From Bdellovibrionota bacterium (lineage in GTDB: Bacteria > Bdellovibrionota > UBA1018 > CAIPTA01 > JAALKR01), in assembly GCA_965207455.1 (NCBI GenBank), contig CBDBMJ010000001.1, positions 1,760,001-1,824,000 of the forward strand: 64,000 nt of DNA. Direction: 5' to 3'. The notes under the pieces are model-generated. The model searched no databases. It was not told the origin of the DNA and saw only the letters and a program-made list of their open reading frames with translations. Position numbers and translations under genes: made by a program. Below are positions 3,027 to 56,103 of the stretch, one piece after another. Numbering within the stretch: the stretch's first letter is position 1; each line of letters opens with the position of its first letter.

Positions 3027-4016
3027 TTATTGAAAAGAGATTCTTTCTGGGTACACCTTGGTATATAGCTTAGCTATGTTGGAAAAGATTACATCTTTTG
3101 TAGCAATTTTTGAAAAATAATTGCCCATTATATTTAGCAATCTGTCGGAAAAGTTTTCTGATAGTGACACCTTTCTGTTAGCTTTCAAAATATTCAAGAG
3201 TTCACCATTTTTTTGAGATTCTTCCTTTATCTTTAACGTTATCATATCTTCCAGTTGTATGATGTAAGACATGTCATGCTCAAATGATGACAGTTCCTTG
3301 GACGGTTCATAGAAAAAAATCCCCTTTGAATCAAATTGGTTCAAGGATAAACTGATTAATTTTTTAGGATTACTCTCAATTATAATTTTACTACTCTCTT
3401 CTTCAGAATCCTTTTTATATTCCTGTAAATCTAACTCCCATTTAGTAGACGACTTGAACTTTTGTAAGGCATCTATAGCAGCAGCATTGCTATCTGGGTT
3501 ATTAATATTTAAAGCTTCAATTATAGCTTCTAGCACCTCACTGGGATCACTGCCCTTTATCCCGTCAGATTTCTTTACTTTATTAAATAAGGCACTCATT
3601 GCATTTACGGCTTCTTTAGAAAGTTCTTTTTTTGCAAAATTTATAAATTTTGTTTCAAGAAAATTAATAGGTGATTTTGGAAGGTTCTTTCCCTTGAGGA
3701 CACCCTCAATTGTCCCTCTTTCAATAGCACTTAATAATCCCTGTAATGGGCACAAAAACAGATTTGTGCTAAAGTATCTGCCCTTTTCATGAACCATGTC
3801 GCATGCTTTATTGAGTACAGACCATAATTCGTGGGAGTAATTGCTATCTTTTGAATATGCTTTAAATAAATCGTATATAGCGGAATGTCTTGCTATTTTT
3901 TTTATATCCTCAGTGCCTAACTCTATCACGTCACCAGTACGCAACATCCCATCTTTTCCATCAGAGTACATGCAAGGACGATAACTCTCAATATGAGTTT
4001 TCCAATCGGGATTCAT
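3027..4016 (-). CDS. Hypothetical protein (329 aa)
   Basis: Long ORF, no recognised motif. Confidence 0.75.
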   Translation of the reverse strand: MNPDWKTHIESYRPCMYSDGKDGMLRTGDVIELGTEDIKKIARHSAIYDLFKAYSKDSNYSHELWSVLNKACDMVHEKGRYFSTNLFLCPLQGLLSAIERGTIEGVLKGKNLPKSPINFLETKFINFAKKELSKEAVNAMSALFNKVKKSDGIKGSDPSEVLEAIIEALNINNPDSNAAAIDALQKFKSSTKWELDLQEYKKDSEEESSKIIIESNPKKLISLSLNQFDSKGIFFYEPSKELSSFEHDMSYIIQLEDMITLKIKEESQKNGELLNILKANRKVSLSENFSDRLLNIMGNYFSKIATKDVIFSNIAKLYTKVYPERISFQ

Positions 4017-5078: not shown

Positions 5079-5531
5079 TTATAAGCTCCATCTTTCGTAA
5101 CAGTTTTGCGACTTGAATTCTTCCTCAATCCTTGAATCTTCCATGAAGCTATCAACATAGTTAAGTCTATTGAATTGATAGAGGTAGTAGGGGGTAGTAG
5201 GGCTTGTGGTGAATGTAATTCCTGTGGAGTTGAGCCAATTCTTACAAGTGAAGGAGAGTGGTAGGGTATGTTTGTTGTTTGTTGGCCATGCTATATTGCA
5301 GTTGTTATATTCTTCAATTTCGGCGTTTACAAAAGTTAGAGGCAATACTTTTATATTGCCATACTGTGGTTTTGAGGTGTCGTAGGTGATTTCAAACTTA
5401 CTGTGGGTGAATTCTCCATTCCAGCCGCAGGTAAACTGTAGAGTTTTCATTTCGCTGTGTGCGGAGGCAAGATTTGGGGATAGGGTTACTATTAGGCAGC
5501 CTAGTATTATTATATTTTTTACGTTTTTCAC
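5079..5531 (-). CDS. Secreted hypothetical protein
   Basis: N-terminal signal-peptide-like segment ending ASA; cysteines. Confidence 0.65.
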   Translation of the reverse strand: MKNVKNIIILGCLIVTLSPNLASAHSEMKTLQFTCGWNGEFTHSKFEITYDTSKPQYGNIKVLPLTFVNAEIEEYNNCNIAWPTNNKHTLPLSFTCKNWLNSTGITFTTSPTTPYYLYQFNRLNYVDSFMEDSRIEEEFKSQNCYERWSL

Positions 5532-5799: not shown

Positions 5800-6033
5800 T
5801 TTTGTTTTGTTCCCTTCGACGGCGACGGTTGTTTTATAGTTTCTTAAGATTTCCTAGGTGAGTTTTCACTCGGTTAAGGTTGGATAGTTTCATTGTTTTT
5901 TTTGCTGGATAAGATTTTATTCCGATCGCCGGCCTTTTCGGGTCATTTCTTGTTTGGATCCTGAGTATCATTTCGACAGATTCCAAGGAACACACCGACG
6001 ATTCATCACCTTACTTATTGGATTTCCGCTGTG
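5800..6033. repeat. Boundary repeat (linker + type A core)
   Basis: Aligns to 4840-5070; ends 14 bp from the mazG-like stop. Confidence 0.9.
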
Positions 6034-6047
6034 ACTCTCCCTCCATT

Positions 6048-7172
6048 TTAAAGGGACTGTTTATTTTTTGGAAGAATATCATTCACTTCTTTTGTAAATT
6101 CCATTGTTCGCTTTTCAGCATCAATGCTAAGAACTCCTATTACTCCTGATTGTTTATCTTTTTCTACTTCTTGATAAGCATCTCTCAATTCTCTAAAAAT
6201 ACGAAAACCTTCCATAATAGTATTTTCCCACTCCTTAAATCCAACATCTTTTACTTCTAGTTCGCTTGTTAAATTTCTTACAAATTTCAACATATCATAT
6301 TCTATGCGAACCATTCCTTCTAAAAAATCATTCCGCTTCGCATAGTTAAATATCTGAAGGGAAATAGCTTCTTCTCGAATTATAGCTCTTGCTCCATCTT
6401 CATTCTTATCTGTAGTAGAACTGTTCTTACGCTTAACTTTTAGAAGACTTCTCAGGACAGGGGACCAGCCTAAAAAAGTAACATAAGACCAATGAAACAC
6501 ATCATGAAACCTGTAATAATCGGGTGATTCATTATTATCATCCACTAGGTCACCTAGATTCATGTCATTCATCTGCATTAAAATTTTATTATCAGTCGAT
6601 TTAATGAATTTAATTTCTGCTTTTCTGGGAAGCCGTTGATAGCGTGGGGAATCTTTATCACGAAAATAACCTTCATCTCTAGGATCTTCCCAACGAGATT
6701 TATTCTTAGCAAGGTTGTCAGAAAACAATTCTTCTTTATTAAGCTTATTTTTCTTCAGTATAAAGAAAATTATTTTTAAAATTTTTTTTATTCTTTCCTT
6801 TAAAAAATCTTTCTTTCTTAAATTACCTCTTTCTTTTAATATTTCAACAGAAATCTGGAGTAATTTATAAATGACTTCTAAATCATTTTCCGTGGTGCTT
6901 GCATCTTCTTGGTTAATAAAATCATCATTTAATTCAATGTTATTCAAGAATGCCAAAGCGGCTGTATACCACAAAGCATCGCCTAACTCCTCAAGAAGAG
7001 ATTCTTTATATTCTTTTATTTCTAGTGAATCTCTTTTTGCTCTTTTATATATACTGGCAAGCGAGCCTATCTCACCACAAAGGCCTAAAAGTACAATCTC
7101 CAGTTTTTTCTCTTCGGTAAGTCCTGTGAGTAATGTTTTTGTCGCTTCCCTTTGATATTCTTTAAGGTTCAT
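6048..7172 (-). CDS. MazG-like NTP pyrophosphatase with MazG C-terminal domain
   Basis: LGLCGEIGSL, EELGDALWY; C-terminal GDLVDDN...YRFHDVFH...WSPVLRSLLK.KRK...EDGARA..EE. Confidence 0.85.
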   Translation of the reverse strand: MNLKEYQREATKTLLTGLTEEKKLEIVLLGLCGEIGSLASIYKRAKRDSLEIKEYKESLLEELGDALWYTAALAFLNNIELNDDFINQEDASTTENDLEVIYKLLQISVEILKERGNLRKKDFLKERIKKILKIIFFILKKNKLNKEELFSDNLAKNKSRWEDPRDEGYFRDKDSPRYQRLPRKAEIKFIKSTDNKILMQMNDMNLGDLVDDNNESPDYYRFHDVFHWSYVTFLGWSPVLRSLLKVKRKNSSTTDKNEDGARAIIREEAISLQIFNYAKRNDFLEGMVRIEYDMLKFVRNLTSELEVKDVGFKEWENTIMEGFRIFRELRDAYQEVEKDKQSGVIGVLSIDAEKRTMEFTKEVNDILPKNKQSL

Positions 7173-7846
7173 TTCTGTAGGTAGGATGATTGACAGGGTT
7201 TTTCCCAATTAATTGGAAAGCCGTGAATTCCCCCGGTAATCTTTCTCTTCTTAAATAATTTTTCCAGCAATCCTATTAGCCTTTCAGCTTCCTTGCCTTC
7301 AAAATTTTTATGACGGATATCTTCTACATCCCTTGCAAATTTCCTAGATATCTGTCCCAAGGCAATTCTCTTTTCCTTGCCAAAATAGTAAAATTCTTTT
7401 GAAATCAGCACATGATGAGACTTTGTATCTACCTTTAAATTTCCTTGGTGAGTCCTTCCATTTTTTCTACTATGGCTTGAATTAGCTTGGTGCCACTTGC
7501 CATCCTTGTGGTACACATTGTCACCATACATGATTTTTTGGCTTCCCGCCTCATTTGGCTTTTTACATTGAAACCTTGAATCGCTCCAATACTTGTTAAA
7601 TATCAGCCTCTCACTAACTCGCATCGCATAAATTAAAGAACCTCTATTTTTCAATGCCTTGCTTCCCAATCCTAGTACCCAGTCTCCAGCCTCAGCATGC
7701 TGTCTTATACTCGACTTACAAGTGGCTAAAGTACAGAATCCATGAAATGGATTAGGAGCAAAACCAAAGTCTTTTGTAACTATGTATGTAAAAATTTTTA
7801 TCGACCCGTTTAACGTAAGGCTTTCTTTTTTTTCTTTCTTTGACAT
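7169..7846 (-). CDS. Nucleotide-modification-associated domain 2 (Nmad2)-like protein
   Basis: YIVTKDFGFAPNPFHGFCTLATCK..IR; GDNVY; VLISKEFYYFG. Confidence 0.8.
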   Translation of the reverse strand: MSKKEKKESLTLNGSIKIFTYIVTKDFGFAPNPFHGFCTLATCKSSIRQHAEAGDWVLGLGSKALKNRGSLIYAMRVSERLIFNKYWSDSRFQCKKPNEAGSQKIMYGDNVYHKDGKWHQANSSHSRKNGRTHQGNLKVDTKSHHVLISKEFYYFGKEKRIALGQISRKFARDVEDIRHKNFEGKEAERLIGLLEKLFKKRKITGGIHGFPINWEKPCQSSYLQK

Positions 7847-15558: not shown

Positions 15559-15567
15559 AAATATTTC

Positions 15568-16645: not shown

Positions 16646-16850
16646 TCTTCCTTTATTTTTAGGATATTTTTTATTTTTTTGCAACAACTTTCTTAAGCTT
16701 ATAAATTCCGTTATCTATTTTCATCGCTTCTGTCAACACTATTGGAACTCGAACTAAATAAACATGGCTGGTGTGATTTCGCTCTTATTGCGACACTAAA
16801 TGAGAAAGATTAGCTCCTATCCTCAAATAAAGGCAATTAATTATTTCAAG

Positions 16851-17906
16851 TTATTTTTCTAAAATTTCTTTTATAGTATCATCTGGAATATCAAATTTTG
16901 TTTTTAATCTGTCTGACAGTTCATTCATTATACTTTTAACTCTAGCTGGATTTTTATTCTTATGCTCTCTAATATAATCATTTACCTCTGAGATTATTTT
17001 TTTCGGCAAATTATTGCTAATATTGATACCCACCAAACCTGTAAATACCGAATCAAAAGTATCTTTAATTCTTCTTGCGTTTGGCGAGAAAGAAATATAA
17101 TTATACAAAAAGTCAGGTCTCATGCAACAACCTTTTTTATACTTTTCGTCCAAAACATTTAAGGCAGTCTTTTGAGTAAGGGTATCCTTTGATAGCCACC
17201 ATGTCTTATAACCAAAAACATTTTTGTTAGATATCTCATTATTTTTTTCTCTCCTATGATATATTTCTATAAATAATTTTGAGTCATGCCTAGCTTGATT
17301 TTCCCGCCTATTATTTCCTATTAATTTCTCACAAAGAGTTTCTACGCTCTCATTTTCTTTCTCATCAAATTCAGGTTTAGTGCTCAAATATAAAATACCA
17401 AACGTCTCTTCAAGCCAAGTGATTATATCCTCTTTAGCATTCTCCAAAGATGGGCTGACAAACTCATCAAGATATTCTTCAAAGCTTCTAACCTTCCCGT
17501 CGCACTTGGCATAGAAATATGCGCGTATTAAAATATGATCGATATACTGTATAAGCATCTTATTCTCAAGAAAAATATCTTCACAATCAAAGTATTCTTC
17601 TTTATATTCTTTCTTTATATACACTAAATGATTTATCAACTCATTTAGAATACCTTCATTAATGAGCAGCTCAACACCCAGTGTATTGGACTGAGATAAA
17701 AGGTTTGAATGTCTTCGACTTTCCTCTTCCAAAAAACATTCGGATAAAACAGGCACTAGAATTGATGTGCATACATATAATTTTAACTCAGAAGCCATTC
17801 TTTGAAAATAAGCGGACACTTTAGGATCGCATTGAAGCATAAATAGCATTAAATAAGTCTTTGAAAGCTTAGTAAGAAAAAGCTTTTGTCGCTTGCTGCC
17901 CTTATA
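16851..17906 (-). pseudogene. 3' part of a hypothetical gene, 5' end abutting IS21
   Basis: About 340 codons of AT-rich protein-like ORF; apparent N-terminus in the ORF track is translated IS21 repeats; no matching 5' half beyond the IS. Confidence 0.6.
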
Positions 17907-17923
17907 TGTCCGATAGCATGAAA

Positions 17924-18101
17924 GTATACCAGGGGATTCGCACTGAGGTATACCACCAGATTCGCATTGAGGTATACCACCGGATTCGCACGGTGGTATA
18001 CCACTAGATTCGCACGCCGGTATACCACCGGATTCGCACGCCGGTATACCACCGGATTCGCACGCCGGTATACCACCAGATTCGCACGGTAGTATACCAC
18101 T
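17924..18101 (+). repeat. Seven tandem 24-bp units plus a partial unit (gtataccaccggattcgcacgccg) in the IS21 left end
   Basis: Directly visible; no spacers. Confidence 0.95.
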
Positions 18102-18173
18102 TGCGACCGGATGGGCCATAATCTCAAAAAATGTAAGATGCTCCCTTTAACTAAATTTTTAAAGGAGGTTTTT

Positions 18174-23971: not shown

Positions 23972-24050
23972 GTTCAGTCATTTCCCTTCTACTTAGATGA
24001 TAGGGCGTAGCTTAAATTTGTCAAGGATGTCAGCTTTCTCGCTCCGACCT

Positions 24051-24192
24051 TTCACAAAGACAAAGTTACTTCTTCTCACTGATAGCCCTAAGGGCGCTTG
24101 TTTGTTCTTGTTTGGGTCCTGAGAATCCTTCCGACATACCTCAAGGAACACACCGACGATTCATAACCTTACTTATTGGATTCCCGCTGTAA
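24051..24192. repeat. Sulfatase 3'-end copy followed by type A repeat
   Basis: ttcacaaagacaaagttacttcttctcactgatagccc then caaggaacacaccgacgattcataaccttacttattggattcccgctgtaa. Confidence 0.9.
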
Positions 24193-28719: not shown

Positions 28720-29370
28720 TTAGTCTGGGAACATTTCTTCTATGGAAAGTTTAGGCCGTACACTCAAAGCCCAAAACACACCATAAACTTTTGTTGAAGG
28801 ACATTTCTCATTTACAAGCTTTTGAAATGCATCGAAATGAGAACCATCCGTTAGCACATCATCAATAACAATAATTTCTCTGGGAACTCCATTAGTAAAT
28901 CCGTTCCACTTATAATTTCTATAGAGATCCGCAGGCTCTCTAGAACCACCTTCGCTTGAAGCAGAATCTACACTTTCTTTATTTGAGATAGGCACTTCAA
29001 TAATGACATTAGAATTTATTCTTCTTAGCTCCCTTAATACATCATTAAGCCTAGAGTCATATTTAGGATGTCCCGGTATTTTAGATGTAGGAATTACTGC
29101 AACTGCGATTCTCCTTGAGAGTAAGCCTGAAAGTTCTTTTGCAAATTTTTGTATTGCTTCAATTTTATATTTCCATTCTGGTGTGTTTATTTTTGATGGA
29201 ACTTTTTTAAAATTCAATATCAATGAATTTGTTCGTGAAGCTTGGTACCCACCTCCCGGGATATATTCTCTAGCAACATAGCAGATATCTTCTTTTTTTA
29301 AATGACTGGGAAATCTCTGAAATTTATCAATTCTTCTCCAACGGGCCGGCTCTTCATCTCTTGAGGACAC
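28720..29370 (-). CDS. Phosphoribosyltransferase-like protein (ShosT-like partner of DprA)
   Basis: IPTSK, IIVIDDVLTDGSHF PRPP-binding-like motif. Confidence 0.75.
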   Translation of the reverse strand: MSSRDEEPARWRRIDKFQRFPSHLKKEDICYVAREYIPGGGYQASRTNSLILNFKKVPSKINTPEWKYKIEAIQKFAKELSGLLSRRIAVAVIPTSKIPGHPKYDSRLNDVLRELRRINSNVIIEVPISNKESVDSASSEGGSREPADLYRNYKWNGFTNGVPREIIVIDDVLTDGSHFDAFQKLVNEKCPSTKVYGVFWALSVRPKLSIEEMFPD

Positions 29371-30241
29371 GAATCACATCCTCAATTTCTTCTACCCTTA
29401 TTGCGCCTTCTTTTTCATATTGTTTAGGCCAAGAAATTGATGATTTTTCAAAGCATGAATTTAAAATAAATAATTTTCTTCCCTGTTGCATGGCCGCGCG
29501 GGCTTGCGTTAGCGTGCCACTGGTATCAGAGGCTTCAATTATTACAGTGCCTTGAGATATTGCAGACATGGTTGCATTTCTTCTGGGAAAGTTATTCTTT
29601 CTGCTCTGAAATGGCTCATGATAATATCTATAAAATGGGACTTGGCTTATTAATAAATGTTCTCTTGATATTTTATCCTGCAAGTCTCTGTTCTCTTTTG
29701 GATAGTATTTATTAATGGGCGTTCCAATGACTCCAATGACTTTTCCATTTTCTTTAATGGCTGTTTCTAGGGCTACAGTATCCACTCCAGTTGCTAAACC
29801 AGATACAATGGTATATCTATTTTCTACCAGTAGTTTTGTTAATCGTCTTGTTCTTAATTTTCCTTCATTAGTACATTTTCTAGACCCAACGATGGAAATA
29901 CAATTATTTTCAAGCAAGGCGGCATCACCTTTGTAATAGAATAATTCAATTGGATGCTTGGCTTCTCTCAATTTTTTGGGATATTGATGATCGCCATTAA
30001 TAGAAACTGAAAAATCAACTTTAAGATTATCTAGATAATTAGTAACTATCGATTTCAGTTCTGAATCTATAAAGCCCATCTTGTCTCTTAGTATTTCAGA
30101 GGGCAGCGCAGTACCATTAAAAAGTTTTGAAAGTTTTCCATCTGTCATACCTTCTGTAGCCCAAAGGGTTTCAAAAGCAATCATTTCATCTCTTGGTGAA
30201 ATTACATTCTTGAAAATATTATCTGTCTCGCTTTTAATCAT
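29354..30241 (-). CDS. DprA/Smf (SLOG) protein (ShosA-like)
   Basis: IVGSR, IVSGLATGVD, YYPKEN, FPRRNATMS, EAS..SGTL.QA. Confidence 0.9.
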   Translation of the reverse strand: MIKSETDNIFKNVISPRDEMIAFETLWATEGMTDGKLSKLFNGTALPSEILRDKMGFIDSELKSIVTNYLDNLKVDFSVSINGDHQYPKKLREAKHPIELFYYKGDAALLENNCISIVGSRKCTNEGKLRTRRLTKLLVENRYTIVSGLATGVDTVALETAIKENGKVIGVIGTPINKYYPKENRDLQDKISREHLLISQVPFYRYYHEPFQSRKNNFPRRNATMSAISQGTVIIEASDTSGTLTQARAAMQQGRKLFILNSCFEKSSISWPKQYEKEGAIRVEEIEDVIRVLKR

Positions 30242-30713
30242 TATATTTTTTATAATTCTATTTATTAGATTTTGCCACCTTTATCAACGCATCTGACCTT
30301 AAAAGTAAAGAGTTAGCTCTGAATATCGAAAATGGGGCGCCCCAACATCAGAAAGCCACCTTAACTTCAGCCCGTCGCATCAATCTTGTTTTGTCGATTT
30401 TTCGCTCAAGAGGGAAGAGATGCACAAAAGGTTCTTGCTATCTTCAGTGGTTAGAGTGATTCGAGTTTCTATGAGGTTGATAGGTAGAGGGGTAAGGTTG
30501 TGGGAGGTTGTTTGAGGGCAGTTCAAGTACTTGTTACAGTTGCGTTTTCGTTTGTATGTTTTAGACCCCATCGAAATTTATAGAGTCCTTGTCGCTTACG
30601 CTAGGGGGAGCATTTAAATTTTCTTTGGCACGAAGTTCTCCGATTAATAGAGGCATCATTTGTATCTCGGACACTCACCGATATTTACATTTCCCTCAGC
30701 GCAATTGCTACAG

Positions 30714-30783
30714 AAGATCATAGCGACAACTTCAAGAAACACACCGACGATTCATAACCTTACTTATTGAATTACCGATGTAA
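30714..30783. repeat. Boundary repeat (type A, diverged)
   Basis: caagaaacacaccgacgattcataaccttacttattgaattaccgatgtaa. Confidence 0.85.
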
Positions 30784-30796
30784 CTTTCTCTCTTTT

Positions 30797-30877
30797 TTAA
30801 GGAGACTGTCTATTTTTTGGAAGAATATCATTCACTTCTTCTGTAAATTTCATCGATCGCTTTTCAGCATCAATACT
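30797..30877 (-). pseudogene. Remnant 3' end of the MazG-like gene
   Basis: Encodes SIDAEKRSMKFTEEVNDILPKNRQSP* vs SIDAEKRTMEFTKEVNDILPKNKQSL* at 6048-6127. Confidence 0.9.
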
Positions 30878-32114
30878 ACTTGAGAAACTGATCAAAAACA
30901 GAGTGCTGAAAGGGAAATTCTTTAAATATATTCGAAATGATTGGATCAAGTGTGGGAACATCTATTGAACTCACATCCAGCTTTTCAAGTATTTCCCCTG
31001 TTTTTGAATCAACAAATAAGAAAGATCCATCACAAAACGGAATCGGATTATAATTTTCTTTAACCGCTTTATTTTCATTGAGCTCTCTCAGAATCATTTT
31101 AAACTTTTGGATTCTATCTTTCACGTCTTTTCGTTCTTTATTTTTGTATTTTTCTCTATCATTAATCCCGATTGCCACAAAAGCCGGCAAGCGATATTTC
31201 TTGTCCTCATCAAATGTGCCAATACAGGATGTTTGTATCTGCTCAAAGTCAAAAAGATCTCTAAATCCATGAAACCCCTTAGCAATGGAATTAAGTATTT
31301 CTTTTGTTTTTTTATTGCAATTTCCTGTTTTACTGCGATTTTTTTTATAAAATTCATAAACTCGGCCGGCAACAGCAATCATTGCTCTAAATTGAGATAT
31401 ATTCATTCTTGCTTCTTCTTTATAATAATTTGCATATAAAAAAATAATCGCTTGAAAAATAATCATATCGATGTTGAGCGCCTTAAAGACGCTTTCTCTA
31501 TAATTAAACCTGAAATAAAAATCAATAGATAAATTATTATAAATATCCCTTATTTCATCTTCATATTTTTTTGATCCTTTAATGAGCAGACCTCTCAGTT
31601 TTCTGTCGACATCATCGAGATTCATTTCATTTTTCTTGCTTAATGCATTTTGTTTTTTACTCTCTTCTCTTTTTTCATGGTAGGATTCTAATAGCCTTGC
31701 AATACGCCTCTCTAATTCACGAGATGATAATTTAAACTCACTTAAATATTTTTTCCTAATGCTTTTAAAAAATAAATCAAAAAAAATTTTTCCCTTGCTT
31801 ATAAGTAAAGACATTTTTTTGGGATCCTTACTACCCTTGAGCAACTCATAGGTTTTATTTAAATCTGCAATACATTTTTTTATCTCTTCTTTTTTTAAAA
31901 AATAACTTTCATCCAAATAAATAGTACTAATATTAGCATACTCAATAAAAGAAAGGGGAGTTGGGGTAATATAGAACGAGTAACCCGAATAGTGCTTCCT
32001 GAGATCACACCAGAATTTATTAGAAAACCCTATATCTTTCAGTATTTTCTTGAGAACGCCGGTATCGATAAGAAGACTATTCTTGCTACCCATGCGGTTT
32101 AAAGGGAAATTCAT
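30876..32114 (-). CDS. PIN-like domain hypothetical protein
   Basis: LLIDTGVL, ITPTP.SFIEY, late DLFD acidic motif; distant paralog of 33665-34840. Confidence 0.6.
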   Translation of the reverse strand: MNFPLNRMGSKNSLLIDTGVLKKILKDIGFSNKFWCDLRKHYSGYSFYITPTPLSFIEYANISTIYLDESYFLKKEEIKKCIADLNKTYELLKGSKDPKKMSLLISKGKIFFDLFFKSIRKKYLSEFKLSSRELERRIARLLESYHEKREESKKQNALSKKNEMNLDDVDRKLRGLLIKGSKKYEDEIRDIYNNLSIDFYFRFNYRESVFKALNIDMIIFQAIIFLYANYYKEEARMNISQFRAMIAVAGRVYEFYKKNRSKTGNCNKKTKEILNSIAKGFHGFRDLFDFEQIQTSCIGTFDEDKKYRLPAFVAIGINDREKYKNKERKDVKDRIQKFKMILRELNENKAVKENYNPIPFCDGSFLFVDSKTGEILEKLDVSSIDVPTLDPIISNIFKEFPFQHSVFDQFLK

Positions 32115-32247
32115 AATCCTCCATATTGACTTTTATTTTTGATTCCTAACTTATCAGAAATACTTTGCTATTCGTCACAGCTTACGTTATTTTTCTTAAT
32201 ATAACTAACAACTTCATGCTTCATAATTTTCTCCGCGACAAGGGGGG

Positions 32248-32305
32248 AACTACTGCTTCCCACTGATTGCCCTTGGGCAAGTGACCCTTCATTTTCCATA
32301 TAGGC
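32248..32305 (-). repeat. Degenerate copy of the sulfatase gene 3' end
   Basis: aactactgcttcccactgattgcccttgggcaagtgacccttcattttccatata vs 53951-54006. Confidence 0.85.
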
Positions 32306-32319
32306 AGGGGGGAACATTC

Positions 32320-33351
32320 TTAATTCCTTCTTATAGCTATAATCATTAATTTTCTTCTATATATGGCCATGGAATGATCATTTATAAATTTCTTCCATGG
32401 CTTGCTCTCACCGAGATATCTTTTAATTCTAAGACCTAAGCTCATGTTATTGAGTAATTTTACATTTCCATAATCACCTTTTGGATAACTCGTCAAGTAT
32501 CTCATATCGCCAGAATGATGATATCCACCAAACTTTGATTCAATATATTTTCCAATGAGAGGAATGAAGCTCACCAAATACATGAAGAAACCACTAAATG
32601 GGAGCATTGTCACAACATCAACTGAATTAACTACCCTATAAATAGGAGTTTTAATGCCTACAGACCATTCCAGATCACCAACCCTTGGTGAGCCAAAAGT
32701 ATAACAAGCCGCTAATCCTCCTTCATGCTTTATGTTTTTTGCAGCTACTGTTGCTAAAGCTCCTCCCAAGCTATGTCCAGTTAAAAACAAAGGAAGCTGT
32801 GATAGCCCCTCACTCTTTAGGCGATCTGTAATTTCTGAAAGTATAATTTCAAAAGCTTTCTTAAATCCCTTGTGAACATTGCCTCCGTTTTCAGAGGGTG
32901 TTTGAACTGCATCAAGATCAGTTTTAATATCCTTTATAGAGTTTTTCTCAGTCCCTCTAAATGCCAAAGCTATAAATTTATTACCCTTCACTAAAACTGC
33001 CTGAGTTCCATCCTTATCAAATGCCTCAACGATCTCAAGATTCAGATGCCTTAATTCTGATTTTAATTGTTCAAGCTCCCTTTTGTCATCGTAGCAAAAG
33101 GTATCGATTAATTTAAGCAAAGATGTTTTGTTATTTTTAGAAATAAGTTTTTCCGTTGTTTCTACTAAATATTGCTCGCCCTTACCTTCCGGGAATAATG
33201 GGTTGAATCTAATATACGCTAGCTCAGATAAACAAGCCATGATCCATGCCGTACGGTCACTGTAAGCCTGTCTATACGAAGGGACTTTCTTTTCTAAAAT
33301 TTTCTTAACGTTATCTTTGTCATCTGGATTAGGCGCAATAATACTTTTCAT
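32320..33351 (-). CDS. Lipase class 3 family protein
   Basis: AFRGTE, VHKGF, GHSLGGALA, YTFGSPRVG, D.V..LP, DHSM. Confidence 0.9.
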   Translation of the reverse strand: MKSIIAPNPDDKDNVKKILEKKVPSYRQAYSDRTAWIMACLSELAYIRFNPLFPEGKGEQYLVETTEKLISKNNKTSLLKLIDTFCYDDKRELEQLKSELRHLNLEIVEAFDKDGTQAVLVKGNKFIALAFRGTEKNSIKDIKTDLDAVQTPSENGGNVHKGFKKAFEIILSEITDRLKSEGLSQLPLFLTGHSLGGALATVAAKNIKHEGGLAACYTFGSPRVGDLEWSVGIKTPIYRVVNSVDVVTMLPFSGFFMYLVSFIPLIGKYIESKFGGYHHSGDMRYLTSYPKGDYGNVKLLNNMSLGLRIKRYLGESKPWKKFINDHSMAIYRRKLMIIAIRRN

Positions 33352-33664
33352 ATTCTGTTTTCCTTCATAATTTCAACAAACATTCAATTCAATATTTCTT
33401 CTACGTTCCGCGGACCCATCACTCTAAGCCAGAGGTGTGAAGAAATTTCTACTAATTTTTATTGTTTCATGTTTCCTAATTTTATGCAAAATAAAATAAA
33501 TATATTAAATATTTCTTATATATTAACAACTTCTATTTATGAATCCAATTTATGCCCCAACCTTTTCAGGTCAGAGCCACCGAAGTGGCATTGGGATTCC
33601 AGGCTCACTCGCCAATTACACTAGGGTTTTGATTTTCATTTTCTTTGCAACAAAGTTCTCAAAT

Positions 33665-34840
33665 TTATAAATCACTTTCACTTATTACATTTTTTACATC
33701 TATTTCGTGGGTAATCTCGCCTGTATCTAAATCAAAGAATAGAAAGAATCCATAATTATCTAATGACATAAAATTTTCAGAAAGTCCTAAACCGCTCGGG
33801 GGGAATTGATTATAATGTTTCACCGACAAATTAAAATCTTTTATTCTCTTATGCGTACTCATTCTTTCTTTTATCTTATTATTTTCCTCACCAAGAATGG
33901 CAATATTTGGAATTATTTCACCTGTCTCACGAAATACACCCAGATAGCTAAAATGTACTAAATCTAAGTCTAATAGGTCAGAGCGAGCTTTAATGCCCTC
34001 CGCAGAACGAAAATACCTTGCATCAGCAAGTGATAATTCTCGCTGAAAATTATCGTTATTTCCATGGCCCTCTCTATTCAATTCTTTTGCCATTTGAGTA
34101 AATAATCTTGTAAATGAAACATTTTTCTCTCTATCTCTATATATCTCAAATAAATGCCCAAGAATTTTTGTTGAAGTAAGCTTGTTTATATAAAGTTCTG
34201 CAAAATCTTTATTATCATCACCCGCCGGTATTATTTCTCTAGTAATTATTTCATAATTATAGCGACATAAAAAATCCATACGTAAAAATTCACAAATATA
34301 TTTGAACAAATAATCTTTATCGTGCCAAAATCTTTTAAAAACACTATCGAAACTAGGCTTAAAGCCACTTTGACATTCTCGCTCTTTCTTCTCAAACATA
34401 TATTTGAGTTTATCGATTTGTAATTCTTCCATTTCAGAATATACCTTCCATGCCATACGCTGAATACAGATCATAGCATCTAGTGCTATAGTCTGATACT
34501 TTTTCCATTCCCTGGTTTCTTTTAATTGTCTAGTGCCATATCTTATTTCTGTTTCAATTTTCTTATTTCTGTATAAATCATACAGCTCTTTTCTATACGC
34601 ATTTAATTCTCTTGTATTTAATATTTTATCTTTAAATATATCTTTCTGATTGATATTTTTCAAATTCACACCAACATACTCAAGAAACATCGCTGGGGTG
34701 ATAATATAATTAAAATTACCACCATATTTCTCTGAAAAATTTTCATTGAATGAGTTAAAAAAATTCGAATTTTTAGATAAACGGTCAAAAACATTAGTAT
34801 CAAAGGTAATATTGTATTTTATATTTTTATCTAACTGCAT
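33665..34840 (-). CDS. PIN-like domain hypothetical protein
   Basis: ITFDTNVF, ITPAMFLEY, DLLDLD; C-terminal FLFFDLDTGEI..IDV shared with 30876-32114. Confidence 0.6.
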   Translation of the reverse strand: MQLDKNIKYNITFDTNVFDRLSKNSNFFNSFNENFSEKYGGNFNYIITPAMFLEYVGVNLKNINQKDIFKDKILNTRELNAYRKELYDLYRNKKIETEIRYGTRQLKETREWKKYQTIALDAMICIQRMAWKVYSEMEELQIDKLKYMFEKKERECQSGFKPSFDSVFKRFWHDKDYLFKYICEFLRMDFLCRYNYEIITREIIPAGDDNKDFAELYINKLTSTKILGHLFEIYRDREKNVSFTRLFTQMAKELNREGHGNNDNFQRELSLADARYFRSAEGIKARSDLLDLDLVHFSYLGVFRETGEIIPNIAILGEENNKIKERMSTHKRIKDFNLSVKHYNQFPPSGLGLSENFMSLDNYGFFLFFDLDTGEITHEIDVKNVISESDL

Positions 34841-34898
34841 AGGCTCCCTCAAACCCCTTCTAAACTAAATATTTAAGCCTTGCTGCAAAAAATTATTA

Positions 34899-35537
34899 TT
34901 AGTTGGATTCCTTTGAAAGAACATCTTGGATGCCAGATGAAATCCCCATCATTCTTCGGGGACCTGCAATTACTACTTCTGTAATATAATTTAACAGTTC
35001 AAATAATCCATTAACAATGGAAGTAGAATCTAATTCTTGGGTTAAATCAATCGTACCTCTATGCAAGGCATTGTTTCCAACCAATCTCACAGTATGAAAA
35101 AGGCCTTTCATTTCTTCTGGTAATAGTAATTTCTTAATTTTTTCATTTAAATTCTTTCCTTCAAACTCATCATTGTTCAGGAGTTCCTCCATGGCTGTGC
35201 GCAATAGTGCGGCGGCGGCTCTAGGAGAATCATTAGCAATGTTTCTTGCCTCTTCATACAAAACCCCTACTTCTTCTGGCATCTCTTGATGTGGAAATGG
35301 TGCGAGCAATACTTTTGGATAAACTAATTTTTCTCTACACCACAGTGCCTGTTTCCCACAACTTCTGTTTTGACACACAGAAAAACTCAACCCGTCACAA
35401 GAGCTATGAATGCTTATAGCCTCATCATAAAATTTATGCCCAAGACCAGCATAAAACCATACTTGATTAGAGCGAACATCACAGAAAGGACAGTCAAATG
35501 AATCTTTTCCAAGCGCAGGAACTTCAGTTCTATTCAT
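34899..35537 (-). CDS. DUF4145 (HEPN-like) protein with Zn ribbon
   Basis: CPFC, YEEAR.I...SPRAAAALLR..E, VRLVGNNALH. Confidence 0.85.
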   Translation of the reverse strand: MNRTEVPALGKDSFDCPFCDVRSNQVWFYAGLGHKFYDEAISIHSSCDGLSFSVCQNRSCGKQALWCREKLVYPKVLLAPFPHQEMPEEVGVLYEEARNIANDSPRAAAALLRTAMEELLNNDEFEGKNLNEKIKKLLLPEEMKGLFHTVRLVGNNALHRGTIDLTQELDSTSIVNGLFELLNYITEVVIAGPRRMMGISSGIQDVLSKESN

Positions 35538-36090
35538 ATTATTTTCACTCCTCCTAAAAAGCAACTGTATCTCTTATTAACTAAATTTGTAAAATTTCAG
35601 AACTTAGAGAATCATAATAAATACTATACCCACAAATAAGGCTACCTTTCCACCCCTGTAAGGATTTGTTAGAGTTTACTTATAAATGCTGCTTGCAGGC
35701 TCTCCGAATCGCATAAAGCAGCCATCAAGACGGCACCACCACCAGCAGCAGCCCCAGCCACCAACCCCTCGCCCCTTTGCACAGCGATTTTGCCGGTGTA
35801 ACTACCAGGGGAAAATGTCGGCACAGACGCGTCAGAGGGGAGTTTAATTTCTAGTAAAGCGGGGGTTTTCAGGACAGCGTTTATAGCTGTCTTCTGCCTC
35901 TCAGAAGGCTGTGCCCTGCCTCTAGCGGTCTATTTTCTTTTTTGAGGGCTACGGGGTGTGGATATCTTTTTAAGATAGGATGAGGTGTTTGCGTTCAGGA
36001 GATGTGGCCGGCTGGTCTACCCTGTAGTTGAGTTACATTGTTTTACTGATGGTTCTGGGCAGGTTCTTTCTTTCTGTATTTGGTTTGGTG

Positions 36091-36547
36091 GTCATTCCTC
36101 ATACTTAGGAGTTGGAGTTCCATTTGATGGTATTTGGATATTAGGTTTCGTTTCATAGTAGTTGGAGTTCAATTTCAGGGTTTGAGGAGTTAGTATTGTT
36201 ATTTTGGGTTTTGGGCGGTGTTATGTTTCCGCTACAAGTCAAGTTCAATCATTCGTTTTATGGGTATTGAGGGAGTTTAAATTTACGGAGGGCATCACTT
36301 TCTCGCTCCCACCTTTCACAAAGACAAAGTTACTTCTTCTCACTGATATGCCTAAGGGTGTGTGTTTGTTCTTTAGGGAGGTGTGGTTGTGTTTCTTTTA
36401 TCAGGCTCAGTGGTTTCATTCTTGTTTGGATCCTGGGAATCATTCCGACACTCCCCAAGACCACACCCCCGCTTCTTTCCTGATTAGGAGTTAAGCGTTT
36501 AGCGTGTGTGGTATGTTTTGCTCCCTTCGACGACTGTTTTATTGACT
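36091..36547. repeat. Near-identical 457-bp direct repeat (copy at 51004-51460)
   Basis: Ungapped alignment at offset 14913 with very few mismatches; includes a sulfatase-end copy and a B core. Confidence 0.95.
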
Positions 36548-36607
36548 GCCCTTCGTGCAGTTTTTTTTTACTTCATAAAATTTTCATTCCTCTCTCCGAC
36601 CCTTTCA

Positions 36608-36701
36608 GATCATTTATTGCTTGGCTTCTGAGAATCATTTCGACACTCCTCAAGGAACACACCGACGATTCATAACCTTACTTATTGGATTCCCGATGTA
36701 A
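36608..36701. repeat. Boundary repeat (type A)
   Basis: ctgagaatcatttcgacactcctcaaggaacacaccgacgattcataaccttacttattggattccc. Confidence 0.95.
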
Positions 36702-36792
36702 TCCTACTCTTATTTTTAGAATACTTTTTGTTTTTTTGCAACAACTTTCATAAACTTATAAATTTCATTTATAGACTTGCATTATCTTAAAA

Positions 36793-38625
36793 TTATTCAG
36801 ACTCTTCGGTATCGGCTGGCGGGATGTTTGCATTATAGAATCTCTGCTGGAAATTAAAACAAAGGAGCATTGCTAAGCTCCAAACATATGGTCCGAAAAA
36901 TTGTAGTTCACCATCCGAAAGAAGCCCATGAGCCAAGTCATTTCGAATGTTCAAACCAAACTCACTACAGAACAAAAAATCTAATTGAAATTGCATATCC
37001 TTGCCCAATATCCCTTCCATTTTTGGCTCAAACAAAAAACTACTTAAGCTTTTCTCTTTTTGTCTGCCCTCAACGTCCATGCCGGTTATATCTTCACCAG
37101 CTATTTCCATAAGCGTTCTGAGCGAGTTTTCTAACTGCAATGTTAAAATTGTACAGGAAGAAATCCAATCCCCACGAATTCCACTTAGAATACCAGATTT
37201 AAATTGCTCAACATGACCCTCTGGAACAAACGGGTTTGGATAAAGCATAGAGTAAATTGAATTTATATTGAAATCACTTTTACGTTCAATCTCTAGCCTA
37301 CAGCCACTTATAATCGCACTACATACCTTCATATGGATTCCAAGCCCTTCAAAAATATTGTATTTCAATGCATTCTCATCTGGATTATCTGATAAGCTTC
37401 CCGGGACAACGCTAGTTGTTCTTCCATTTCTGCCTATCAAACGATTTGACATACTGGTTGAAACTGGGTTTGCTCGCATACTATTTCTTGCATTTTCTGT
37501 CAAGATGCTCTTCCTTTGAGGGCGAGACATATCAGCAATCACCCTTAAAGAATCAATAAAAGAAGATGACTGGATTGCATTACGGCACGCATTCATACAT
37601 TTACTTACATCAATTTCAGCACGAAAAGTAAAGGGATTGAGTTGTCCCGGAATATTTTTTTGAGTTTCCACCAACTCTTTATGTAATTCCACTCTCTTCT
37701 GCCTCATCCCCGGAGTGCGGCCACATGCTTCAATAGCTTTATTATAAAAATCTCCAAGAAATAGAGCATTTGCTCCTCCTTTTTTCACCTCCTCAAGCTC
37801 CATAATAAAAATTTTTGTATGATCTTTTTCCCATCTTTTCTTTTCTGATGTCCTCTTCTGATTGCCATAAATTTCTATCAGAAGATCAACATATTTTCTA
37901 GATTTCTCAAATTGTTTTTGCTTAATGCTGTCCTCAACAGATTGTTCAATAAGAGATATCCATTTTTCAGTATTTTCACCCCCAGTCCTTAAAACTAAAG
38001 GAAGCAACTCAAAGAAAAAATACCTTGTGTAATCATTGGGCTCTACCGGTTTATCATCAATAAATTTCTTAATCTGAAGTTCTATTTTTTCCCTTTTATC
38101 CTCTTTTCTACCAAGCGACCTCCATATCATTATGGATCTCTCGACATAGTTTCCAATGGTAAAGCTGTCAAATTCTTTATTTTTTTCTCGAAGCATTTCA
38201 CATAATGAAAGATATTTATTTATTGCCTCTTTTCCAAATTCAAATCGATTTTTTTCTTTCTCCCAAAGCATGTCATTAATTCTAGCGAGCATGGCCAAAT
38301 TTGATGTGCGATTTAAAAACTCCTCCAATATAATAAAATCTTTTCTTTCAAAATCTTTAAATGCATAAGACCTACTACCATTAAAAGCTTGAAACTTGGG
38401 TTGAAATGGTTTATCGATATTATGTCTACCCAGAGATGAGTCAACAGCAATATATAATATCTCAATATTTTCAGCCAAACCCTCGCATCCATTGTTCTTT
38501 TCTTTTTCTACAAAAGCAAGCAGACTCTCCCCTATCTTCATATAGGAAGTTTCTTTATCAAGATCTTCTGGCAATCTCCATTTATCGGGAAATGCTTTAA
38601 TATCTGCTTTTTTGAATATATTCAT
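36793..38625 (-). CDS. DUF4209 / HEPN-domain protein
   Basis: QLENSLR, G.NIRNDLAHGLL RxxxxH motif at the C-terminus. Confidence 0.8.
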   Translation of the reverse strand: MNIFKKADIKAFPDKWRLPEDLDKETSYMKIGESLLAFVEKEKNNGCEGLAENIEILYIAVDSSLGRHNIDKPFQPKFQAFNGSRSYAFKDFERKDFIILEEFLNRTSNLAMLARINDMLWEKEKNRFEFGKEAINKYLSLCEMLREKNKEFDSFTIGNYVERSIMIWRSLGRKEDKREKIELQIKKFIDDKPVEPNDYTRYFFFELLPLVLRTGGENTEKWISLIEQSVEDSIKQKQFEKSRKYVDLLIEIYGNQKRTSEKKRWEKDHTKIFIMELEEVKKGGANALFLGDFYNKAIEACGRTPGMRQKRVELHKELVETQKNIPGQLNPFTFRAEIDVSKCMNACRNAIQSSSFIDSLRVIADMSRPQRKSILTENARNSMRANPVSTSMSNRLIGRNGRTTSVVPGSLSDNPDENALKYNIFEGLGIHMKVCSAIISGCRLEIERKSDFNINSIYSMLYPNPFVPEGHVEQFKSGILSGIRGDWISSCTILTLQLENSLRTLMEIAGEDITGMDVEGRQKEKSLSSFLFEPKMEGILGKDMQFQLDFLFCSEFGLNIRNDLAHGLLSDGELQFFGPYVWSLAMLLCFNFQQRFYNANIPPADTEESE

Positions 38626-53891: not shown

Positions 53892-53952
53892 ATTTAATCA
53901 TTTCCTTTCGACTCAAGTGATACAATATAACTGAACTTTCACGCAGACAAAA

Positions 53953-56103
53953 CTACTTCTTCCCACTGATTGCCCTTCGGGCAAGCGGTCTTTCTTTTGC
54001 CATATAAAGCGCACTTTGCCAAAGTGCTAGGGCTTTTTGGATCATTTCTTTTGCTTTTTTGGGGTAGAGGTGTTTTACGTCTTTATCATAATCTTTCGTT
54101 TTATAGCGATACAGGATCGCCAGATTGTCCTCTGGATTAAGAGCTGCCTCTAAATTATTAACATATTTATTTCTATTCCAATTATTAGTATTAAGCCTAA
54201 GCAAAAATTCTTGTCCAATTAATTTCACAAGCATATTTGTATGTATAAACATATAATCACTGTCTTTATACGATGAGTGCAAAATATTCCTTCCCAACAT
54301 GGTGTTTTCTGCAGATATACCCATCATACCAAGCATAATGGGCATAATATCTATACTGGAAGTTACCTCTTGCACAGTTTTTTGTTTTTTAAACCGGAAC
54401 TGAGGAGAATAAATAATCAATGGAACCTTTAAAAAAGAAAGGTTATGATATGTGAACCAATCAGGAACATGCTCGGCTCCTTTCAAACTTATCCCATGAT
54501 CACCCACTAATACAAAAACTGTTTTATTATAATCCTTTCGCTTCTTAAAATCTTCAAAAAATACTCGTAGGCTGTAATCAGCAAACCGCAAAGCATTAAG
54601 CTCCTCAATGGAAGAAAAGCCATTTTTTTCTAATGTTTTTTTATCTACATGAATCGACATAAAGCCTAAATTCTCTTTGGGAATAACATAAGGAGGATGG
54701 TGGCTCGCTCCTTCTAAAAAAGTGAGAAATGGTTTGTTTTGATTAATTTTTCCTGCTCCATGCTTTTCCTCAATAATACGCTGTACCTCCTTATATAAAT
54801 GGAAGTCAGAAACCCCCCAAGCATTTACTTCCGGGTATTTATAATTTTTTTTTTCAAGCAAGTGGATATTATCTATGTTTTTCACTGTTGTCTTGTAGTC
54901 TAACCAAGTGAAATCATGAGATCTAAAAAAATATTTTTCATGCTTTTTAAGGGAATTTGCTAGGCTTGGCAATGGATAAGAGGGAATTTCAAGAAATGGA
55001 ATGCTCGCTATTATGGAAAAAACACCATGAATACTAGATGGAGAGTAAACTGAAGCATGGAAATTTTCAAAAAATATGGCCTCTCTTCTTCGGATAAGTT
55101 CCTTCAAAAACGGAGTAGGATTTAGTGGATTTTTCAATGTCTTATAATCAGAATAAGATTCCAGAAAAATGAATACAATATTGGAATTGGGATCAAGATA
55201 AGGCGTCTTTCTTATGGGCCTTTTAAATAAATTGAGTATCTTTGCTAGATCTACAGACTCACCAGGTTCACCACCCTTTAGTGCTCTAGGATCAGGGGCT
55301 TTTAATTTAAGATGACCTTGGACTCCTGCAAATACTTTAAAGAAGTCACTAGGAAAAAAAGTAGCTTTTTCTTTTATTTTAGTGTCAAGTAAATGTTGAA
55401 AAGTATTAAAGCTCATGGGCAAATAAAATGGATCTTGCAATGAATAACTACGATAAGAATTAAACGGTCGCCTAACATCAATACCAATGACTCCTAAAAA
55501 TAAAAACTCCAAGCATAATATGGAATAAAGAGCCTTTCGCTTAGGTAAATAAGAAGTGGTTGTAATCCGATTAAACGACTGAAAACCAAACCTGTCAAAT
55601 AAACCCTTACCTGTAAATACAAGCCTCTTTAAAATAAAATATAAGAAACAGGAAAGGAGCAGCCACCCGAAAACAATCCATACTATAGGATAGGATTTTA
55701 TCACCATCGATAGAACAGCCAGTGGGCTTTTTAAGATGTAAATGCTATCATAACCCAATCTTTTCTCCGTATATCCGTATGTGCCAAAATCAATGAGAAA
55801 AAACAAAAATATGAACGAGAAAAGAAAGGTATGAAAAAACAGAACATTCTTATTGCTATAGATATATTTTTTAGGAAATAAATAATCTCGCCAGAAAAAA
55901 GCTAAGCACGGCATGGAAAATAGAAGACTCCAACGCAGATCAAATCTAGCACCATAGAATAAGCAGTTCAGCAATGCATTCTGATTGCGGAAAAGAGTGC
56001 TCAGATCAGCTGAAAAATAAAACAGCATAATAAAGCGAAAAACCTGCTGTACAAGAAAAAACAACAAGATAATTTTTATGCAGGAATACAACCTCATGTT
56101 CAT
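53953..56103 (-). CDS. LTA synthase family / sulfatase-like membrane protein
   Basis: Multi-TM N-terminus with G.RFD; NIVFIFLES, WGVSD, HHPPY, FADYSL..F, TVFVLVGDHG, VPLIIY, DIMP..LG. Confidence 0.9.
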   Translation of the reverse strand: MNMRLYSCIKIILLFFLVQQVFRFIMLFYFSADLSTLFRNQNALLNCLFYGARFDLRWSLLFSMPCLAFFWRDYLFPKKYIYSNKNVLFFHTFLFSFIFLFFLIDFGTYGYTEKRLGYDSIYILKSPLAVLSMVIKSYPIVWIVFGWLLLSCFLYFILKRLVFTGKGLFDRFGFQSFNRITTTSYLPKRKALYSILCLEFLFLGVIGIDVRRPFNSYRSYSLQDPFYLPMSFNTFQHLLDTKIKEKATFFPSDFFKVFAGVQGHLKLKAPDPRALKGGEPGESVDLAKILNLFKRPIRKTPYLDPNSNIVFIFLESYSDYKTLKNPLNPTPFLKELIRRREAIFFENFHASVYSPSSIHGVFSIIASIPFLEIPSYPLPSLANSLKKHEKYFFRSHDFTWLDYKTTVKNIDNIHLLEKKNYKYPEVNAWGVSDFHLYKEVQRIIEEKHGAGKINQNKPFLTFLEGASHHPPYVIPKENLGFMSIHVDKKTLEKNGFSSIEELNALRFADYSLRVFFEDFKKRKDYNKTVFVLVGDHGISLKGAEHVPDWFTYHNLSFLKVPLIIYSPQFRFKKQKTVQEVTSSIDIMPIMLGMMGISAENTMLGRNILHSSYKDSDYMFIHTNMLVKLIGQEFLLRLNTNNWNRNKYVNNLEAALNPEDNLAILYRYKTKDYDKDVKHLYPKKAKEMIQKALALWQSALYMAKERPLARRAISGKK

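Follow-up and report, generated by a model that had tools for sequence, protein, structure and literature searches.

A MazG gene tail joined to the stop codon of an unrelated gene, a probable recombination scar in a defence island of a Bdellovibrionota bacterium

In a window of 64,000 nucleotides (nt) from the 2.38-Mb genome of a Bdellovibrionota bacterium (C1:1760001-1824000), a complete gene of 412 amino acids (aa) runs directly into a short stretch that encodes the end of a MazG-like protein. We conclude that this stretch, 30797-30877, is probably a recombination scar, in which the dead 3' end of a MazG gene, together with a boundary repeat that we call module A, was fused at 30878/30879 to the stop codon of the 412-aa gene. 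The join lies in an anti-phage defence island of ~67 kb, in which low-GC cargo is set in a non-coding scaffold of higher GC that runs on one strand. The scaffold is a mosaic of modules A, B, D12, and T2, and sibling units share scaffold and differ in cargo. Positions are counted from the first letter of the window; those with the prefix C1 are contig coordinates.

RESULTS

The MazG-tail remnant and its source

The features at the join and at the intact MazG locus are as follows.

30713..30796, plus strand: diverged, incomplete copy of the module A boundary repeat (repeat family D5, alignments)
30797..30877, minus strand: MazG/MazG_C pseudogene fragment, the last 26 codons and stop, lacking start codon and gene body (nucleotide alignment, tblastn, homologue alignment)
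30876..30878, minus strand: junction, where the TAG stop of the 412-aa gene makes up the final 3 bases in common with the MazG gene (read from the sequence and the alignment)
30876..32114, minus strand: complete 412-aa gene of a rare family, with GGAGG 5 nt before the ATG (list of open reading frames [ORFs])
5944..6047, plus strand: copy of module A that immediately follows the intact MazG gene (repeat finder, alignments)
6048..7208, minus strand: intact MazG-like NTP pyrophosphatase gene with MazG_C, source family of the remnant (Pfam PF18722, E 7e-58, residues 184-371 of 386)
7169-7846, minus strand: Nmad2 gene, in an operon with MazG (Pfam Nmad2, E 1.5e-61)
7810-8316, minus strand: ThsB-like TIR gene, in an operon with MazG and Nmad2 (Pfam ThsB_TIR, E 8e-14)

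Direct repeats at 5984-6129 and 30733-30878 are 88% identical over 146 nt (family D18 of the repeat finder, and alignment), and blastn lengthens the match to 5967-6129 and 30717-30878 (86% over 163 nt, E 4e-48). The left part of the shared stretch is module A; its remaining 82 nt, on the right, correspond to the 3' end of the MazG gene. When the two coding tails (6048-6129 and 30797-30878) were compared, 8 of 82 bases differed by count on the alignment (90% nucleotide identity), and local alignment of tail with tail gave z = 41.9 against 500 shuffles. A tblastn search of the whole genome with the MazG protein returned its own gene and 30803-30877 only, the latter matching MazG residues 361-385 with 21 of 25 identical (E 7e-7). 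The 8 nucleotide differences change 5 of the remnant's 26 residues; its frame and stop are intact, and the alignment has zero indels. These substitutions look neutral, as would be expected for a fragment freed from selection.

A search for MazG_C homologues gave 1850 hits at E <= 0.001. Among the 35 that were aligned, taken from 120 listed, the first 15 residues of the remnant match a conserved C-terminal motif of the type [IV]DA[DE]KR..F. Because the C termini of homologues share its stretch, the remnant derives from a MazG_C gene and is not captured boundary sequence. Judged from sequence, then, the tail is native to the MazG_C family, and 30797-30877 is a true pseudogene fragment. A first-pass annotation of this DNA had read the fragment in the same way, as the last 26 residues of MazG placed after a boundary repeat, and its proposed comparison of 5990-6140 with 30730-30880 yields the 146-nt match given above. 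In the intact operon the order is TIR-Nmad2-MazG, with MazG the last gene. A whole-genome search found no remnants of Nmad2, TIR, or the MazG body elsewhere.

The junction

The junction TAG overlaps the first codon of the remnant by 2 nt, and the same letters lie out of frame in the intact MazG copy. Beyond 30878 the sequences at 6k and 30.8k are unrelated, and DNA homology ends there. The TAG is a possible 3-nt microhomology at the junction, with the join placed 0-4 nt from the stop codon of the 412-aa gene. This ORF is untruncated, as its closest homologue, P0002 (411 aa, 57% identity), ends at the same alignment column; homologues P0003 and P0004 extend 7 residues beyond the end of the 412-aa protein. 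P0002 and P0004 are encoded on a single contig of 33.8 kb. The stop codon overlapping the start of the remnant, and the precision of the junction with respect to the ORF, both stand as first annotated. A 2964-nt Logan contig, assembled separately from run X1, covers 30740-33703 with 0 differences, and run X1 may be the genome's source sample and so is not an independent strain. From run X2, which belongs to another study, there are 151-nt pieces only, some of them ~86-87% alike, which hints at a relative, and none reaching the junction; run X3 gave no matching piece.

The 412-aa protein and its family

The family of the 412-aa protein is rare: a search of 5.8 billion clusters gave 3 homologues, and one of 1.84 billion gave 22 representatives at E <= 0.001; none of 60 other related genomes has a homologue, and no homologue loci were found in metagenome or viral contig collections. 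A locus in a Caldisericia metagenome-assembled genome was rejected as spurious, the match lying inside a 914-aa repeat protein. A distant paralogue of 395 aa lies nearby:

33665..34852, minus strand: distant paralogue of the 412-aa gene, 395 aa (BLASTP 26% identity, E 2e-9)

A third paralogue, split in two ORFs (125 and 216 aa), lies outside the island at C1:1714462-1715486, where it lies near a tRNA-like stretch and is followed by no MazG tail.

The first-pass annotation had called the 412-aa gene PIN-like, and as a name this goes too far. The protein has no match in Pfam, NCBIfam, or PADLOC, and PIN_12 matches weakly (E 0.22) in one of 24 aligned family members. When the family was compared by hhalign with 5 PF01850 proteins of related genomes, the match lacked significance (probability 0.08%, E 0.66), and the sole aligned stretch was the D-x-x-D ... 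T-x-D region, which we take to resemble the PIN signature. D286 and D289, which are nearly invariant in the family, are candidate acidic residues together with D19, and a DT motif often follows strand 1. The AlphaFold2 model (pLDDT 85.8, pTM 0.88) has strands at 11-16, 46-49, 311-317, 364-369, and 375-380, which form a small sheet split by a helical insert of ~230 residues; a PIN fold combines a parallel sheet and a cluster of four acidic residues. Searches with this model used it whole, sheet core discontinuous as it is: Foldseek found nothing at E <= 0.001, and the best VIA-align matches cover the helical insert only and are of helical-bundle type (Z <= 7.2). A PDB profile search gave nothing relevant. 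Among Atlas clusters, the nearest bears the name 'PIN domain-containing' at 0.88, which is a lead only. The label PIN-like is thus plausible as a candidate identity.

The scaffold

When three boundary regions were searched against the genome with blastn, 60 of 60 high-scoring segment pairs fell on the plus strand of C1:1746954-1811534 and none on C2 or C3. A pattern search located 13 right edges of module A, all on the same strand, and B, D12, D19, T2, D13, D9, and pieces of the 5' leader likewise match only the island region on the same strand. The spacers, of which 35565-36792 is one complete example, are 1.0-1.8 kb long, with a GC content of 42-43% against 30-38% for the cargo and 40% for the genome. 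In the best-preserved units, read on the minus strand, cargo is followed by T2 or the MazG tail, then by A, B, D12, a 74-aa ORF, and a leader, and then by the next cargo. Modules A and B have a common sub-repeat of ~30 nt. The MazG tail is absent beside 11 of the 13 module A copies. Exact-pattern searches of genome and metagenome contig collections returned 0 matches to module A elsewhere.

Several identities for the scaffold were tried and rejected. Rfam gave 0 matches at gathering score across the whole window and 0 at E <= 1 in 30200-37000, and the window holds no tRNA or tmRNA genes, which disposes of a known RNA family or a tRNA-derived att site as the repeat. A protein-coding scaffold was set aside after 57 stop-to-stop frames of at least 50 aa in five spacers gave one sub-threshold Pfam match, T5orf172 at E 0.0058, which belongs to the real 74-aa ORF. 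The idea that A-B-D12 is a decayed copy of the C-terminal region of a 716-aa gene at the island's right end (see below) found no BLASTP alignment.

Two small ORFs recur in the scaffold. The 74-aa ORF follows the D12 tail and is present at 53667-53891 (minus strand), at 23747-23971 (minus strand), and near C1:1756621-1756761, with 85% and 75% aa identity, and decayed traces of it lie at 41.8k, 36.2k, 51.1k, and 4.65k. A single outside homologue (44%) was found, and the match of the ORF to T5orf172/MUG113 (GIY-YIG-like; E 0.0056-0.074) is sub-threshold. Most module A copies, for example 36640-36670 (minus strand), bear a mini-ORF of 7 codons, M-N-R/C-R/Q-C-V-P-stop, which sits on the cargo strand, a few bases downstream of a stretch resembling AAGGAGG or AAGTAAGG, and keeps its ATG in 9 of 10 aligned copies.

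Flanks of the 412-aa gene, element T2, and other gene tails

The surroundings of the 412-aa gene contain a second gene-tail fossil, copies of T2, and two further operons or genes of the island; the D12 series leads back to the island's right end.

28720..30241, minus strand: Shosta defence operon, downstream of the junction, with ShosA at 29354-30241 and ShosT at 28720-29370 (PADLOC E 4e-84 and E 1.8e-33)
30595..30650, plus strand: copy of T2 on the upstream side of the Shosta operon (aligned locally to 33615-33668, z 10.6)
32228..32302, minus strand: second fossil, from the 716-aa gene, comprising approximately its last 18 codons and stop, with 1 nt deleted (86% identity to 53951-54006 by blastn, alignments)
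32320..33351, minus strand: Lipase_3 (class 3 lipase) gene, just upstream of the 412-aa gene (Pfam E 1.8e-26)
33590..33672, plus strand: relic of a module A right edge and T2, the latter with the palindrome ATTTATAAAT that contains the TAA stop of the paralogue (alignments)
33638-33672, 16654-16712, 36711-36772, 30595-30650, and possibly 51590-51610: T2 copies
53953..56103, minus strand: membrane sulfatase-domain gene of 716 aa that marks the island's right end, with its 3' end towards the island (Pfam Sulfatase, E 1e-23)
53915-54000 (the gene itself), 51211-51286, 41842-41917, 36298-36373, 32228-32302, 24034-24109, and ~4700-4750: D12 copies

The fossil at 32228..32302 begins 16 nt behind the lipase stop, and from its end to the start codon of the 412-aa gene there are ~110 nt. 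Taken with its own upstream ~110 nt, and lacking a 3' flank, the 412-aa gene forms a piece of ~1.35 kb that stands between two different gene-tail fossils, and this bracketing fits replacement of former content between scaffold pieces.

The D12 repeat consists of the last ~16 codons and stop of the 716-aa gene, with the stop (TAA or TAG) in register in all 7 of 7 copies. The D12 copies are direct repeats that contain the 3' end of the island-facing gene, and the series looks like stacked displaced gene ends behind the 716-aa gene. Among 40 relatives searched for this gene, the best match was 29% over the domain, and there was no clear orthologue.

The T2 copies are mutually related (z 7.3-20.8). 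The element terminates in a perfect palindrome of 10 bp, ATTTATAAAT, which supplies the TAA of paralogue 33665..34852 and which could also be read as a -35/-10-like pair on the plus strand, antisense to the cargo. Homology between T2 and the MazG tail was considered and rejected, the similarity being not significant (p 0.012-0.65).

Tight joins recur across the island. The next minus-strand ORF stop (ORFs of at least 80 aa) lies 1-51 nt from the module A edge at 7 of the 13 edges, 101-106 nt away at 3 of 13, including the 30.8k junction unit, and 216-1508 nt away at 3 of 13. In the junction unit, the MazG tail makes up 81 of the 102 nt between the module A edge and the ORF stop. ORFs 3027..4016 and 5079..5531, which are mutually dissimilar, end at the same TAA within the conserved edge of module A. 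On the 5' side, the leaders of PD-T7-4 and of a 323-aa nucleotidyltransferase are 85% identical over 163 nt, reaching the ribosome-binding site. The common 5' leader lies at 35549-35770 and 15566-15790; the listed TTG start of PD-T7-4 (35564) is within it, and the true start is probably ~9 codons downstream.

Recombinases, folds, and signals

None of the genome's 9 PF00589 matches, which mark tyrosine recombinases, lies in the island (C1:1746954-1814000), the nearest being at C1:1722237. Pfam found no recombinase among 60 island ORFs, and the sole resolvase-domain match in the genome, at C1:103476, is outside the island. An attC-like structure was likewise absent: RNAalifold on 10 module A copies gave -1.99 kcal/mol with 9 pairs and 0 compensatory changes, and six single-stranded DNA folds had z values from -1.51 to +1.35. 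An integron reading was rejected, with neither hairpin nor integrase. The stretch 30200-32400 holds 0 terminator-like sites, so that none lies within the tail or repeat, and its 3 promoter-like sites are all outside the repeat (shuffle mean 8.0). A look-up of RNA data sets covering 30300-32300 listed none.

Other island genes and repeats

The island carries two ShosA genes (one with ShosT), a cyclic oligonucleotide-based antiphage signalling system (CBASS)-type operon, ABC-3C components, AbiEi, PD-T7-4, a STAND NTPase, SMC-like ATPases, two class 3 lipases, IS21, and IS66. The paralogue of the lipase beside the 412-aa gene is 34% identical to it and lies at the left end of the island. The second ShosA (C1:1749467-1750354) shares 83% aa and 85% nt identity over 899 nt with 29354-30241 and lacks ShosT; a 91-aa Sel1-repeat ORF occupies the expected ShosT place beside it, and no ShosT remnant was found. 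By blastn this pair had the appearance of an 'ORF-precise' duplication, which was rejected when global alignment showed flank homology decaying gradually.

A coding segment of ~80 aa from a small gene linked to ABC-3C recurs at 1549-1791, 4059-4289, and C1:1757705-1757974 (91% and 75% aa identity). These recurring segments stand directly beside module A copies and may be more cargo fragments. At least 7 tandem repeats of 24 nt (17900-18125) lie inside a doubtful ORF, 16851..18119, that adjoins IS21 (18111-20389), and single units related to them occur at 4413-4460 and 1924-1971 (families D4 and D10). Finally, 58976-60283 and 63135-64433 are a duplication of 94-100% identity that holds the end of an ABC-2 permease and a prepilin peptidase (A24) gene.

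DISCUSSION

How the scar may have formed

Under the scar reading, the former unit would have been shared scaffold carrying a MazG-type operon like that at 6048-8316. This cargo would have been removed, or replaced by ~110 nt of upstream sequence and the 412-aa ORF, leaving its last 81 nt behind. By the likeliest pathway, ordinary recombination, one exchange would have taken place in, or been anchored by, homologous scaffold, while the other side would have been an illegitimate join at the 3-nt microhomology (TAG), and the outcome could have been reached via homology-facilitated replacement or via a deletion fusing neighbouring units. Joins that cut the ORF would have been lost by selection and useless spacer deleted, so that surviving joins would be pressed against stop codons; on this account the join lies exactly at the stop codon because of selection for an intact ORF and the loss of useless spacer. 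We infer both the order of events and the recombination pathway.

The first-pass annotation had gone further and proposed that cassettes are duplicated and then overwritten by ORF-precise insertions. It was right in kind, as the locus is a fossil of cargo exchange that is base-precise at the stop, and it went too far on mechanism. What is supported is a scar of cargo replacement or deletion; an overwritten duplicate of the MazG cassette is one of several routes that might have led to it, beside a fusing deletion or a copied-in patch of scaffold and tail, and no other remnant of the operon was found in the genome. Nothing points to a dedicated machinery for ORF-precise insertion; there is neither an attC-like hairpin nor an integrase or resolvase-domain gene in the island.

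Several points weigh against the scar reading. The tail is the sole MazG remnant and no second fragment of the operon exists, which means that the replaced unit is deduced and not seen, and no other strain or related genome with the island was found to show an alternative cargo. A stop-exact join is improbable for one random event, roughly a few percent by our own estimate, and the argument from selection and trimming was made after the fact. At 90% identity, the tail has diverged no further than module A (~84%), which could reflect functional retention or gene conversion. Old duplicates, moreover, can seem ORF-precise merely through decay of their flanks, as the ShosA pair shows, and this effect may explain some tight joins elsewhere in the island. 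The MazG junction is not explained by flank decay because the neighbouring sequence is an unrelated gene.

Alternative explanations

Gene conversion gives the alternative that survives best, although we consider it rather unlikely. Here the 412-aa gene would have come first, and a piece of ~163 nt, made up of the right part of module A and the MazG tail, would have been converted into its 3' flank by a tract that overran the boundary repeat and ended where homology or selection stopped. This would suit the small extent of the shared stretch, which is just 163 nt, and the lack of any other fragment of the MazG operon. The T2 copy at 30595-30650 also resembles the T2 directly behind the paralogue's stop, as if it had once stood behind the 412-aa gene, and the left half of the 30.7k module A is closer to the copies at 41950 and 28642 than to the 6k copy, hinting at a mosaic. 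The mosaic signal is weak, however, as the 6k copy does not stand out as the closest one when module A is compared. Gene conversion also requires that both ends of the tract be homologous, but no homology is seen on the gene side, and the tail is 10% diverged from the sole possible donor in the genome.

A dedicated cassette system, integron-like or growing by accretion at att sites, is improbable. Its recombinase would be encoded elsewhere and would place cassettes of ORF size at set points in the scaffold, and the tails would be the displaced ends of target genes. The repeats do lie in one orientation at one locus, several ORFs stop exactly at the conserved edge, and the ~30-nt sub-repeat of A and B resembles arm sites. 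The 716-aa gene points its 3' end at the island, and its tail recurs at 6 further sites, all on the island side, as in tandem accretion. Yet no tyrosine or serine recombinase lies in or beside the island, and no hairpin or inverted repeat was found. The distance from module A edge to cargo stop varies from 1 to >100 nt, which leaves no fixed crossover point. The 716-aa gene, without a clear orthologue in the 40 relatives, is not demonstrably a conserved target, and the MazG remnant is 24 kb off, on the wrong side of intact MazG for a displaced end. Beyond the one-orientation repeats and the 716-aa tail copies, nothing appears to support a site-specific system acting in trans.

Slightly less probable still is that the MazG tail and module A are kept as a functional boundary element, such as a 3' untranslated region, a terminator, or an antisense promoter. 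Conservation of the tail equals or exceeds that of the repeat (90% against 84%), with frame and stop intact and no indels, and a weak alignment with the 30k tail (p 0.012-0.036) is given by T2, which at 16.6k and 36.7k holds the same position beside module A. The similarity of T2 to the 6k tail, however, is not significant (p 0.08-0.16), and the tail is missing from most module A copies (11/13). There is no terminator-like or promoter-like site in 30713-30880, its fold is no better than those of shuffles (z -1.1 and -1.5), and Rfam has no match for it. As for an assembly chimera or chance similarity, repeats can mislead assemblers, but a chimera is ruled out because the X1 contig crosses the junction unchanged (30740-33703), and E 4e-48 with z 41.9 excludes chance, making either explanation negligible.

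Comparison with known systems

Integron arrays consist of attC-bounded cassettes with IntI, and sedentary chromosomal integrons carry defence genes. The island resembles them as a one-orientation array of mostly co-directional cassettes, with a similar repeat close behind each and stops at or in the repeat. Unlike integrons, it has no IntI and no attC hairpin, its cassettes are multi-gene and up to 10 kb long, and its spacers are long and composite.

Elements of the cis-mobilizable (CIME) type grow by tandem accretion at the 3' end of a gene, and staphylococcal cassette chromosome (SCC) composite arrays with defence cargo are reportedly formed in the same manner from integrase-less elements. 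The likeness lies in the direct repeats, which include the tail of the island-facing gene (D12), with defence cargo between them. The differences are that no Ccr-type or other recombinase lies near the island, that the repeats are decayed and unevenly spaced, and that the MazG tail does not follow the geometry of displaced ends.

In transformable bacteria, homology-facilitated illegitimate recombination replaces resident DNA with foreign DNA through a homologous anchor on one side and a microhomology join. For the scar reading this is a mechanistic analogy only, as nothing here shows transformation or a direction of transfer.

Small intergenic pseudogenes in the defence hotspots of P2 and P4 are, according to one study, likely remnants of intense recombination (PMC13586616). 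As these hotspots are described there, the present locus is alike in having a short, unannotated defence-gene fragment between intact and unrelated defence genes. Set against that same description, the fragment here differs in being 90% identical to a paralogue in the same island, joined to a boundary repeat, and abutted exactly to a stop codon, and the island lies in the chromosome and lacks any phage or satellite backbone. In T4-type phages, genes are shuffled by repeated regulatory cassettes called PeSLs, which combine a strong promoter with a terminator stem-loop (PMC2839356). Both systems have repeated non-coding units between non-essential genes, at which recombination inserts, deletes, or replaces genes. 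PeSLs differ from the scaffold in their promoter and terminator, of which 30200-32400 has no counterpart, and in that module A has no stable fold; the scaffold, at 1-1.8 kb, is also a mosaic that contains gene-tail fossils. A limited, keyword-based literature search found no published description of this scaffold, which is not a claim that none exists.

What the junction means

Defence islands turn over quickly, and the joins are rarely visible. Here, both partners are kept in one genome, the intact MazG operon and an orphaned tail 24 kb away, which makes this a sequence-level case of cargo exchange in a repeated scaffold. For annotators, the 'boundary repeats' of such islands are partly fossils of gene ends, as with the MazG tail and the 716-aa tail. 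The scaffold as a whole is a more unusual object than the junction. We entertain as a speculation, and a doubtful one, that the island is an integrase-less cassette array in which the scaffold serves as a docking frame to which defence ORFs are joined at their stops, with exchange carried out by a scaffold-encoded nuclease or by a recombinase acting in trans. The docking frame, in this equally doubtful scheme, would comprise module A, module B, the 716-aa tail, and the 74-aa gene in its three copies; breaks of a homing type and their repair would drive exchange, and the MazG tail would be one docking footprint. If a mechanism does make joins this tight to stop codons, the island would represent a new kind of cassette system; otherwise the junction is a clean but ordinary scar.

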